Assembly (NCBI RefSeq): GCF_030013205.1
Contig: NZ_CP122648.1
Source: Escherichia coli
GTDB lineage: Bacteria; Pseudomonadota; Gammaproteobacteria; Enterobacterales; Enterobacteriaceae
DNA length: 64,000 nucleotides
Strand: one strand, 5' to 3'
Positions 1,280 through 51,131 of this stretch are shown in pieces (position 1 is the first letter of the stretch; each line of letters starts with the position of its first letter). The position numbers and the translations under genes are program-made. The notes below the pieces were generated by a model. The model worked only from the letters and a program-made list of their open reading frames with translations, was not told the origin of the DNA and ran no database searches.

Positions 1280-1309
1280 TCCTGTAATAATTACTTACAT
1301 CTGTCTGAT

Positions 1310-1341
1310 AAAAAACCCGCTTTTTGAAGCGGTTTTTTTTG
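1310..1341. terminator. bidirectional intrinsic terminator between convergent lipA and tatE
   Basis: GC stem flanked by an A-run and a T-run (aaaaaacccgctttttgaagcggtttttttt). Confidence 0.6.
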
Positions 1342-1380
1342 TATCGAACAAGATATTGAGGGAGCGTCCTGCTCGCCACG

Positions 1381-1584
1381 TCACTCTTTATGAGAGAGCT
1401 TTTCAGCCTGAAGATCAACGTCTGCGCCTTTTTTCGCCGCAGCATCGTCATCATTCATCGCCTTCTTGAACCCTTTAATGGCCGCTCCAAGGTCTCCGCC
1501 CAGCGTACGTAACTTCTTAGTCCCAAACAGCAGAACGACCAGCGCCGCAACTACCAGCAGTTTGGTAATACTAATCTCACCCAT
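1381..1584 (-). CDS. tatE: twin-arginine translocase subunit TatE
   Basis: 67-aa [24 protein letters not shown]...; matches TatE from memory. Confidence 0.95.
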
Positions 1585-1712
1585 AGATACCTTCTTGACA
1601 TATAACCGGCAACAGAACGCGCCTTAAAAACCAGAGAATATTAACGGTCATTCGACGCGCGCACACAATAGCAATCTGTAACAAGGTGAATCAAGCGCCG
1701 AGTAAAAAAACA

Positions 1713-2501
1713 TCATAATAATTGCGGCGGCGCAAAGCGACGGTTGTTTAAGACGGGCAGTTGCGCGCGCACCTGACGCACACGTTCGGGCGTCACTTCC
1801 GCCATAATGAGTGCAGGCATTTCTGACGCTGCCGCAATGGTGACGCCAAAGGGATCTATAATCCGGCTTTGCCCGATATTTTTGTTCCCGCACTCCCCCG
1901 CCGCCACCATATAACAGGTGGTATCCAGCGCACGAGCGGCAAGCAACGTTGACCAGTGATGCTCTTTGAGCGGCCCACGAACCCAGGCGGCAGGAAGTAC
2001 CAGGATTTCAGCTCCCTGTAATGCCTGTGCCAGCGCCAGCTCTGGAAAGCGTAAGTCATAACAGGTCATCAGACCGACCTTCATCCCTTCCACCTCCAGT
2101 AACGGAGCTATTTCATTACCAGCATCAACATGGCGTGATTCCTGAATGGCAAATGCATCATAGAGATGCAGTTTGGCATAACGGGCGACGATGTTTCCTG
2201 CCTGTAGCGCCACCAGCATATTCCATGCGCGCCCCGGCGTTGAAGGAACATGAATCGTCAGAATTGTCGTCATCATGTTACGTTTACTTTCTCGCCGTAA
2301 ACGTCCGAGGAATTCGCCTTCCAGCAGCTGTGCTGATTTAACCGATAGATCTGCATCATGATCATCACGCGCCAACAATGCTTCCGGCAGGACAAACAGC
2401 GAAACGTCGTTTTCCGCCGCCTGCGCCATCAACGAGGCACAAATCTCAGCGTTCTTTTCCCACACAGATGTAACAGCAAACTGTCCTGCAGCAACCAGCA
2501 T
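1713..2501 (-). CDS. ybeM: C-N hydrolase (nitrilase-superfamily) amidase, intact
   Basis: 262 aa from the internal ATG, which has a GGAGG Shine-Dalgarno 5 nt upstream; the track ORF begins 2 codons earlier at GTG; uninterrupted frame. Confidence 0.85.
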
Positions 2502-2593
2502 TGCCACCTCCTGTCAGAGTCGTAAAATTCGCCAACGACGATTATTCGGCGTTACACTTATCACTCATACAAATCAAATAGCAGGATTTTGCA

Positions 2594-2977
2594 GTGTTAC
2601 AACTTCTTTTAGCAGTTTTTATTGGCGGTGGTACGGGAAGCGTGGCGAGATGGCTGTTAAGTATGCGATTTAACCCGCTGCATCAGGCGATTCCGTTGGG
2701 GACGCTGGCTGCAAACCTGATTGGGGCATTCATCATAGGAATGGGATTCGCCTGGTTTAGCAGGATGACGAACATTGATCCAGTGTGGAAAGTATTAATC
2801 ACCACCGGATTTTGTGGCGGTCTAACAACCTTCTCAACATTTTCGGCAGAAGTGGTGTTTTTGTTACAAGAGGGCCGCTTAGGCTGGGCGTTACTGAACG
2901 TTTTCGTCAACCTTTTGGGGTCTTTTGCCATGACCGCACTGGCTTTCTGGCTGTTTTCCGCCTCAACCGCACACTAA
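2594..2977 (+). CDS. crcB: fluoride export channel CrcB (Fluc)
   Basis: 127-aa hydrophobic [19 protein letters not shown]..., GTG start; matches CrcB from memory. Confidence 0.93.
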
Positions 2978-2982
2978 AGACC

Positions 2983-3014
2983 AAAAAAAACCCGCTGATT
3001 AAGCGGGTTTTGAA
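2983..3014. terminator. bidirectional intrinsic terminator between convergent crcB and cspE
   Basis: aaaaaaaacccgctgattaagcgggttttg hairpin with A-run and T-run flanks. Confidence 0.6.
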
Positions 3015-3030
3015 TTCTTGCTGACGTATC

Positions 3031-3240
3031 TTACAGAGCGATTACGTTTGCAGCAGAAGGGCCTTTGGCACCGTTAGTGATTTCGAACTCTACGCGCTGA
3101 CCTTCAGCAAGAGTTTTAAAACCATTAGTCTGGATTGCAGAGAAGTGTACAAACACGTCTTTGCTGCCGTCTTCCGGAGTAATGAAACCGAATCCTTTGG
3201 ACTCATTAAACCACTTAACGTTACCTTTAATCTTAGACAT
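3031..3240 (-). CDS. cspE: cold-shock-domain protein CspE
   Basis: 69 aa from internal ATG ([20 protein letters not shown]...); the track ORF is N-terminally extended. Confidence 0.95.
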
Positions 3241-3414
3241 CAAAATTACCTTTACATGAAAAATAGACACAAATGCTGTGTCGGTTACCAGTACACCAAT
3301 TGTGGTACGCTTTGTCCAGTGCAACTTTACTAAAAAGTGATAAAAGTCGCGTTATTTTTGATGTTAATTATTTTACCCATTGATTTTAAAGAGTTTACTA
3401 AAATTTCATTTGTC

Positions 3415-16335: not shown

Positions 16336-16564
16336 TCCTCTGATTTACAAAACACGCTAATTCGTCTTCCATAAACCATGACGATTAAGATTTATACATA
16401 ATGCGCTACATTGAGGAATTCCCTGAATGTGACGCAAATCACTTCAAAGAGTGAGCAACAGTCAGTATCATCATGTGAGTTAAACCCTCGCCGCCTGACG
16501 GTGAGGGTTTTCTTTTGGGTATGTTTATCTGCGACACTCGCAGTACCGACGACATGGAGTAAAA

Positions 16565-17814: not shown

Positions 17815-18525
17815 GCCATAATAAATATCCTCCGGCATAGCCGGAGGTTTTTCAAATGCGCCTATAAGGCTCTCTTACCAGCCGCGCCCTAACAGGCGCA
17901 CACGATCTGACATTTGCATCCAACTTCGTTACTTACGGCCCGTAAACGGGCTGCCCGGATAGGGAATCGATAACTGCTCTCCCATTTTATCCTCTTCAAG
18001 CTGGTGCTTTATGTAATCCTGTATCTTCGCCGTGTTCTTACCCACTGTATCGACGTAGTACCCTCTGCACCAGAACTCCCTGTTCCTGTATTTGAATTTC
18101 AAATCACCAAACTGCTCGTAAAGCATCAGACTGCTTTTCCCTTTCAGATATCCCATAAACCCGGATACGCTCATTTTGGGCGGGATCTCCACAAGCATAT
18201 GGATATGATCTGCACAGCATTCAGCTTCCAGAATCCGTACGCTTTTCCACTCACACAGCTTTCTCAAAATACTGCCTATTGCTCTACGCTTCTCTCTGTA
18301 GAACACCTGTCTTCGGTATTTTGGCGCAAAAACTATGTGATATTTACAGTTCCATCGGGTGTGCGCTAAGCTCTTTTCGTTCCCCATTGGGACCCCCTTT
18401 TGATTTCTTGTTTGACACTTGCAGTTGCCAGACCGCAAGGTGTTTTAACAAATCAAAAGGGGTTTTAATAACTGGCTCAAAGCTGAAAGCTTTCCGGAAC
18501 CCCCAGCCTAGCTGGGGGTTTTCTG
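17815..18525 (-). mobile_element. IS200-like insertion sequence (IS200/IS605 family); boundaries approximate
   Basis: about 710 bp of extra DNA between the uspG and ahpF terminators; it encodes a 152-aa Y1 (HUH) transposase and has the IS200 left-end hairpin (aacccccagcctagctgggggtt) plus an RBS-proximal structured leader. Confidence 0.75.
17929..18387 (-). CDS. tnpA: IS200 transposase TnpA (Y1 HUH transposase)
   Basis: 152 aa from internal ATG (MGNEKSLAHTRWNCKYHIVFAPKYRR... with the HxH motif in ADHIHML); near-identical to Salmonella IS200 TnpA from memory. Confidence 0.93.
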   Translation of the reverse strand: MGNEKSLAHTRWNCKYHIVFAPKYRRQVFYREKRRAIGSILRKLCEWKSVRILEAECCADHIHMLVEIPPKMSVSGFMGYLKGKSSLMLYEQFGDLKFKYRNREFWCRGYYVDTVGKNTAKIQDYIKHQLEEDKMGEQLSIPYPGSPFTGRK

Positions 18526-20890: not shown

Positions 20891-21261
20891 CTATACTTCC
20901 TCCGTGTTTTCGATGAGATGTAAGGTAACCAATTTTTGCCGATTCGGCTAATGCGTTTCCATTATCAAATCGATAAGTTTTACCTTACAACCTTCGTAAG
21001 ACAACTTTGTGAACTTTGCACCGCCAGCGGCGATAAAAAGTAAAATGGCCCCCTTTCCAGGTGACCGTGTAATCTGAACTACCCTTTGGTATCTTCAGCG
21101 CCTGCCTGCAGGCTGAGGTGTTGCCCTTACAAATGCAACAACGACATGGATTACAACACCCTCATAAACAAAGGGCAATCACCTGATCTAAGCTCTTACC
21201 TATGGCAGTGATAGGTTATGCCTTTTACCCGACTTTTGCACTGACTGAAAAGGACAAATTA

Positions 21262-49391: not shown

Positions 49392-49489
49392 GCCGGATGC
49401 GGCGTGAACGCCTTATCCGGCCTACAAAAATCTTGCCAATTCAATATATTGCAGGACCACGTAGGCCTGATAAGCGTAGCGCATCAGGC
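49392..49489. repeat. REP (palindromic unit) elements, BIME-like pair
   Basis: gccggatgcggcgtgaacgccttatccggcctac and the inverted gtaggcctgataagcgtagcgcatcaggc between fepA and entD. Confidence 0.8.
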
Positions 49490-50268: not shown

Positions 50269-50421
50269 CTACTTCTTCGGTTCGTAAGCGAGAACAGCCT
50301 TAAACTCAATATTACGTTCCTTCACCGTAAACTCACACAGCGAGTCTCCGACCAGAAGCGTAAATCCCAGCACCGTTAAACACAGCACTATGACTGCCAC
50401 AAGGGCATATTTCGTCAGCAT
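50269..50421 (-). CDS. hokE: Hok-family membrane toxin (HokE-like), copy 1
   Basis: 50 aa [50 protein letters not shown]. Confidence 0.85.
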
Positions 50422-50566
50422 GTTTATATTGCCTCCATGCGAAGAAGGGACTACCATCCGAGTTGTTGAGGTTCGGAGTGGCAGCCCCAGGATTGATAGA
50501 AATATCTCCTGGGGCTTCATCTTTCCAGACCTCAGAGTTAACCTGAAACCGGAAAGCTTCAGGCAC
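50333..50566 (-). CDS. mok-like overlapping reading frame (modulator of hok translation), copy 1
   Basis: 77-codon ORF in a different frame, starting upstream of hok and ending inside it ([16 protein letters not shown]...). Confidence 0.5.
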
Positions 50567-50630
50567 CCGCTGTTATCTTACCCTTCCTTAGCAAAATAAC
50601 TGTTTATTTATACAGCAAGTCCTGTTTCGG
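50560..50630 (+). ncRNA. predicted Sok-like antisense RNA, copy 1 (position inferred)
   Basis: inferred only from hok/sok architecture (antisense to the mok initiation region / hok leader); hairpin agtcctgtttcggact present; no promoter confirmed. Confidence 0.3.
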
Positions 50631-50670: not shown

Positions 50671-51131
50671 TCGCCCGCAGCCATCACTGACCACGGGCGA
50701 AAGTGTAAAGCAGGTGCCTTACCACCCTGACCTGACAACCGGATATGCGGGGATTACTCCCCGCACAACGGCTACTTCTTCGGTTCGTAAGCGAGAACAG
50801 CCTTAAACTCAATATTACGTTCCTTCACCGTAAACTCACACAGCGAGTCTCCGACTAGAAGCGTAAATCCCAGTACCGTCAAACACAGCACTATGACTGC
50901 CACAAGGGCATATTTCGTCAGCATGTTTATATTGCCTCCATGCGAAGAAGGGACTACCATCCAAATTGTCTGGTTTGGAGTGGCAGCCCCAGGGTTGATA
51001 GAAATATCTCCTGGGGCTTCATCTTTCCAGACCTCAGAGTTAACCTGAAACCGGAAAGCTTCAGGCACCCGCCGTTATCTTACCCTTCTTCAGCAAAATA
51101 GCTGTTTATTTATACAGTGAGTCCTGTTTCG
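50671..51131 (-). other. hok/sok-type type I toxin-antitoxin locus, copy 2 (ybdK-proximal)
   Basis: second unit of the tandem repeat; hok coding sequence differs from copy 1 by 3 synonymous substitutions; flanks carry indels. Confidence 0.7.
50772..50924 (-). CDS. hokE: Hok-family membrane toxin (HokE-like), copy 2
   Basis: 50 aa, protein identical to copy 1; the upstream mok-like frame is fused in-frame here (98-codon ORF 50772..51068). Confidence 0.85.

Follow-up and report, generated by a model that had tools for sequence, protein, structure and literature searches.

The deaminated-glutathione amidases described in the literature are yeast NIT2 and mammalian Nit1 (PMC5714238; PMC7041631). 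The Escherichia coli protein to which the same reaction has been assigned, YbeM (EC 3.5.1.128), is encoded by a gene whose pseudogene status in K-12 is textbook knowledge. In MG1655 the gene (b4581, NC_000913.3 658031-658818, 788 bp) is annotated as a pseudogene, and it was split in former annotations into ybeH and ybeM. K-12 ybeM is regarded as a pseudogene and routinely serves as a neutral insertion site (PMC7242477; PMC6207328). In strain CFT073, ybeM is transcribed, bound by NsrR and about three-fold down-regulated under NO stress (PMC5320621).

The window analysed here is a stretch of 64,000 nucleotides from E. coli contig NZ_CP122648.1, in which ybeM is uninterrupted. We consider it highly probable that the region carries an ordinary functional ybeM allele coding for a cytoplasmic Nit1-type amidase, that an unbroken ybeM is both ancestral and the majority condition in E. 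coli, and that the K-12 pseudogene arose from a deletion of G200 which is common to a minority lineage of natural isolates.

The ybeM reading frame and its surroundings

The ybeM frame comprises 262 codons and a TGA (789 bp) on the minus strand (Table 1). A preliminary description of this DNA had reported an intact frame of 262 amino acids starting at an ATG with a GGAGG Shine-Dalgarno sequence and had placed the gene between tatE and crcB; ORF analysis, translation and direct reading of the sequence confirmed the former, and the positions of the two neighbouring genes bear out the latter. An in-frame GTG (2505-2507, minus strand) located two codons 5' of the ATG extends the mechanical ORF to 264 amino acids. 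This GTG is unlikely to be the true start and was rejected, since it falls within the Shine-Dalgarno sequence and the start given in RefSeq is the ATG.

The intergenic region shared by ybeM and crcB is 92 bp long, and a simple scan of it for a sigma-70-like promoter of ybeM on the minus strand gave no hit. Simple scans also returned a plus-strand sigma-70-like site (2501-2528), which would serve crcB, and a candidate ybeM promoter inside crcB (2837-2809), which scored no better than chance and was discarded. A search of the intergenic region for a fluoride riboswitch yielded no Rfam match at the gathering threshold.

Within ybeM there is also an out-of-frame ORF (2108-2251, minus strand) whose product begins with MFLQRRGAH, the peptide that a 29-bp ybeM fragment of UTI89 encodes; over-expression of this fragment was reported to cause filamentation (PMC6206680). 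Elsewhere in the window, Rfam matches include, besides the small RNAs and leaders listed in Table 1, two sok antitoxin RNAs about 500 bp apart (50413-50568 and 50916-51070, both on the minus strand), which suggests a tandemly duplicated hok/sok-type locus, and near them a match to the sRNA ES036 (CssrF; 49427-49468, plus strand).

Table 1. Positions of the features of the window that are discussed in the text.
Feature	Position	Strand	Basis and remarks
tatE	1381-1584	-	downstream neighbour of ybeM, same strand
ybeM CDS	1713-2501	-	ORF and translation, PF00795, NF033621, identity to the K_EC180 CDS; ATG 2501-2499, TGA 1715-1713
Cys147 codon (TCYD motif), nucleophile	2061-2063	-	NitFhit alignment, conservation
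Glu121 codon (QES), second conserved superfamily Glu	2139-2141	-	opposite the conserved 'ES' in the NitFhit alignment
Lys110 codon (KLHL motif), catalytic	2172-2174	-	NitFhit alignment, conservation
G lost in K-12 MG1655, DH1 and 860 complete genomes, present here	2302	-	codon 67 (Arg), gene position 200; located by aligning the gene to NC_000913.3 658031-658818
Glu40 codon (LPE motif), catalytic	2382-2384	-	aligned to LPE of NitFhit (1ems)
Shine-Dalgarno sequence GGAGG	2507-2511	-	direct sequence reading; 5-base spacer to the ybeM ATG (2501-2499)
crcB (fluoride exporter gene)	2594-2977	+	divergent neighbour upstream of ybeM
cspA-type thermoregulator model (spans cspE together with its leader)	2983-3341	-	Rfam
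rnk leader	16411-16519	+	Rfam
STnc490 sRNA	18397-18520	-	Rfam
STnc70 sRNA	21035-21128	-	Rfam

Family, fold and active site of YbeM

The YbeM sequence matched the Pfam CN_hydrolase profile (PF00795) with 141.4 bits against a gathering score of 23.2 (E = 4.2e-41), residues 3-245 covering profile positions 2-255 of 256; the ybeM frame is therefore not a chance ORF, and this full-length domain places its product in the nitrilase / C-N hydrolase superfamily. Within the superfamily, the protein exceeded the curated cut-off of the NCBIfam model for deaminated glutathione amidase (NF033621, de_GSH_amidase; 451.5 bits, cut-off 355), the match running from residue 3 to residue 261 of 262 and from position 2 to position 260 of the 260 profile positions. 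It remained below the cut-offs of both the YafV/omega-amidase model NF007757 (61.5 bits, cut-off 249) and NF043013, the model of the Yersinia-type deaminated glutathione amidase (82.7 bits, cut-off 500).

The identity of the gene is further defined by its close relatives. The 1.8 kb between window positions 1300 and 3100 were 100% identical to DNA of strain K_EC180, in which the ybeM CDS encodes WP_001305561.1 (RefSeq name 'deaminated glutathione amidase'), a protein identical to the one encoded in the window and recorded under this name on at least 1,000 contigs. Compared with WP_000959109.1 of O157:H7 and BL21(DE3), 261 of the 262 residues were identical, the sole difference being H124R. Residue 124 is His in the window and in ATCC 25922 and Arg in the O157:H7, BL21 and K-12 alleles, and this looks like a natural polymorphism of YbeM. 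The gene thus combines near-identity to the named E. coli YbeM with an orthologous position, the order tatE-ybeM-crcB being the same.

Alignment with Caenorhabditis elegans NitFhit (1ems) and yeast Nit2 (4h5u) mapped Glu40, Lys110, Glu121 and Cys147 to the catalytic residues of the superfamily. The Glu-Lys-Cys triad that the preliminary description had singled out for checking is present (Glu40, Lys110 and Cys147) and is accompanied by the conserved Glu121. All four residues were invariant in 14 enterobacterial orthologues as well as in 66 diverse homologues with identities down to 30%. An AlphaFold2 model built on the alignment of the 66 homologues (pLDDT 97.5, pTM 0.94) showed the alpha-beta-beta-alpha sandwich fold, and a Foldseek comparison with many solved members of the superfamily gave TM scores of 0.86-0.91. 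The best matches in the PDB were the Nit2 proteins of Kluyveromyces lactis and yeast (TM 0.90), and NitFhit matched as well (TM 0.91); among the yeast Nit2 entries was the C169S mutant, which contains a peptide-like ligand of endogenous origin.

The substrate of YbeM would be deaminated glutathione (2-oxoglutaramyl-cysteinylglycine), a by-product that transaminases form from glutathione. Judging from the family, Cys147 would attack the amide carbonyl of this compound, Glu40 would act as the general base, and Lys110 together with Glu121 would stabilise the tetrahedral intermediate; 2-oxoglutarate and cysteinylglycine would be released in the course of thioester hydrolysis. YbeM may accordingly be described as a putative metabolite-repair or salvage enzyme.

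Substrate assignment

Comparisons of sequence and fold do not cleanly separate the Nit1-type enzymes from the Nit2-type omega-amidases. When PDB sequences were searched with the YbeM sequence alone, NitFhit (1.7e-29) and yeast Nit2 (1.1e-26) ranked before mouse Nit2 (4.4e-22); in a profile search, mouse Nit2 (2w1v) and yeast Nit3 (1f89) came just behind NitFhit, and the Foldseek E-value of mouse Nit2 was close to that of yeast Nit2. The assignment of deaminated glutathione is based on the curated NF033621 model, on the nearly identical sequence of the E. coli protein that bears the name and on an enzyme assay. In that assay (Peracchi et al. 2017, PNAS 114:E3233), recombinant E. coli YbeM reportedly hydrolysed deaminated glutathione far better than 2-oxoglutaramate, the preference being said to be about 30-fold.

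It is quite unlikely that YbeM, although intact and active, has a physiological substrate other than deaminated glutathione, be it 2-oxoglutaramate, as for Nit2 and YafV, or some other small amide, and that the database name over-specifies its function. The near-level ranking of the omega-amidases Nit2 and Nit3 with the Nit1-type structures in the profile search and the similar fold scores of the two types would agree with such a substrate, but YbeM fails the omega-amidase model while passing that for deaminated glutathione amidase, the single-sequence search favours NitFhit and yeast Nit2 over mouse Nit2, and the reported preference points in the same direction. Keeping to deaminated glutathione, we infer both the substrate and the expression of YbeM in this strain.

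The K-12 lesion and the frequency of intact and broken alleles

The remark in the preliminary description that ybeM of K-12 is a frameshifted pseudogene was right: b4581 is annotated as such, and the alignment to the K-12 region that had been proposed as a check located the lesion at gene position 200, in codon 67, where a single G is missing. Apart from this one-base deletion (G200), the K-12 gene differs from that of the window by 12 substitutions, corresponding to 98.5% DNA identity. The allele of DH1 is identical to that of K-12 and is annotated as 'frameshifted'. Translation of K-12 ybeM stops after 75 codons, so that Glu40 is kept and Lys110, Glu121 and Cys147 are lost; the downstream part of the gene is open in another frame, but lacks Glu40.

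Among 5,423 complete RefSeq genomes of E. coli, 860 (about 16%) carried the deletion allele, counted as exact matches to the K-12 60-mer that spans the deletion, and 3,625 contained an exact match to the intact 61-mer of the window. Sampled genomes that matched neither sequence, such as that of ATCC 25922, showed point differences without the deletion. About 84% of the complete genomes, including BL21(DE3) and O157:H7, are thus free of the K-12 deletion. Its carriers include K-12 derivatives and isolates from humans, chicken, dog, cattle and river water; in strains 300709 (human stool, Mozambique) and 744 (blood, Houston), for example, the same deletion is present and ybeM is annotated as 'frameshifted'. 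All sampled enterobacterial orthologues (from E. fergusonii, Citrobacter, Salmonella, Leclercia, Kosakonia and Enterobacter) are 262 amino acids long. Taken together, the genome counts and the 262-residue orthologues across the Enterobacteriaceae indicate that intact ybeM is the ancestral and majority state and that K-12 carries a derived allele found in a minority of genomes. The preliminary description had stated that this strain keeps a potentially functional amidase; that the frame is intact and equipped with the catalytic triad stands, but the implied unusualness does not, given that about 84% of complete genomes lack the deletion and that the sampled orthologues have the same length.

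The dN/dS values among intact E. coli ybeM alleles were 0.00-0.08, which indicates purifying selection on the intact gene. That the frame is intact here merely by chance, the gene being dispensable and drifting in E. coli, as its loss in the K-12-like lineage might suggest, and silent or non-functional in this strain, is very improbable: the frameshift occurs in about 16% of complete genomes without obvious harm, ybeM of K-12 is in routine use as a neutral insertion site (PMC7242477; PMC6207328) and mice, yeast and Arabidopsis that have lost Nit1 show no overt phenotype (PMC7041631), but against these observations stand the low dN/dS, the invariant catalytic residues, the constant length of 262 amino acids across the Enterobacteriaceae and the transcription and NO response of ybeM in CFT073 (PMC5320621). 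Two further non-synonymous changes (V33A and V37A), and no synonymous ones, set K-12 and DH1 apart from wild isolates with the G200 deletion, a pattern that, with these tiny numbers, fits relaxed constraint and decay after inactivation.

Truncated YbeM protein clusters recovered by the homologue search led to two further frameshifts in draft and Logan assemblies, namely an additional T after position 152 and the loss of one A from the A5 run at 615-619. None of 5,426 complete genomes contained an exact copy of either diagnostic 60-mer, and the source assemblies also carry other broken genes, lipA and tatE among them, so these frameshifts probably represent errors of assembly or else are rare. 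Recurrent inactivation of ybeM in E. coli, which they might have indicated, is unsupported, both being absent from the complete genomes.

The surroundings of ybeM vary in other strains. Isolate AHB5 has an IS200/IS605 transposase between crcB and cspE (locus L007, 2096-2554). In strain 744, IS26 abuts ybeM and is directly followed by nfsB (locus L008, 3833-4537); the genes crcB, cspE and pagP, found elsewhere on this side of ybeM, are missing from the locus. When the segment from 1300 to 3100 was compared with E. coli genomes, 2 of 5,436 matching places lay on records classed as plasmids, and 2 of 5,426 genomes had no match at all.

Discussion

That ybeM is intact in this strain is correct but ordinary, as this is a well-annotated, common gene and its intact state is already known. 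The strain has the standard allele, predicted from its sequence to be functional, and this in itself matters little. Of more use is a by-product of the analysis, the exact placement of the K-12 lesion (G200, codon 67) and its occurrence in about 16% of complete genomes, wild isolates included. K-12 is a natural null for metabolite repair by YbeM, which is relevant whenever conclusions on the metabolism of K-12 are carried over to other E. coli.

The G200 deletion is a natural allele, present in about one in six complete E. coli genomes, and not a laboratory accident of K-12. We think it unlikely that it spread by selection rather than by hitch-hiking in a single clonal lineage, for instance because YbeM carries a cost in some niche. 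Had selection driven its spread, natural pairs of knockout and wild-type E. coli would be at hand for testing the value of glutathione-damage repair.

With respect to known systems, the protein encoded in the window shows no substantive difference from E. coli YbeM (EC 3.5.1.128; NF033621), His124 in place of the Arg124 of O157:H7 and BL21 being the only change. The K-12 MG1655 pseudogene occupies the same locus and is nearly identical at the DNA level, but it lacks G200 and carries V33A and V37A. The eukaryotic Nit1 and yeast Nit2 proteins (1ems, 4h5u, 4hgd, 7elf) resemble YbeM in fold (TM about 0.9), in the E-K-E-C site and in the assigned reaction (PMC5714238), whereas YbeM is only about 28-31% identical to them, is shorter and has neither the yeast insertions nor the Fhit fusion. 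The Nit2/YafV omega-amidases (NF007757; 2w1v, 1f89) share superfamily and fold with YbeM, which is a different paralogue, with another assigned substrate and a score far under the cut-off of their model.
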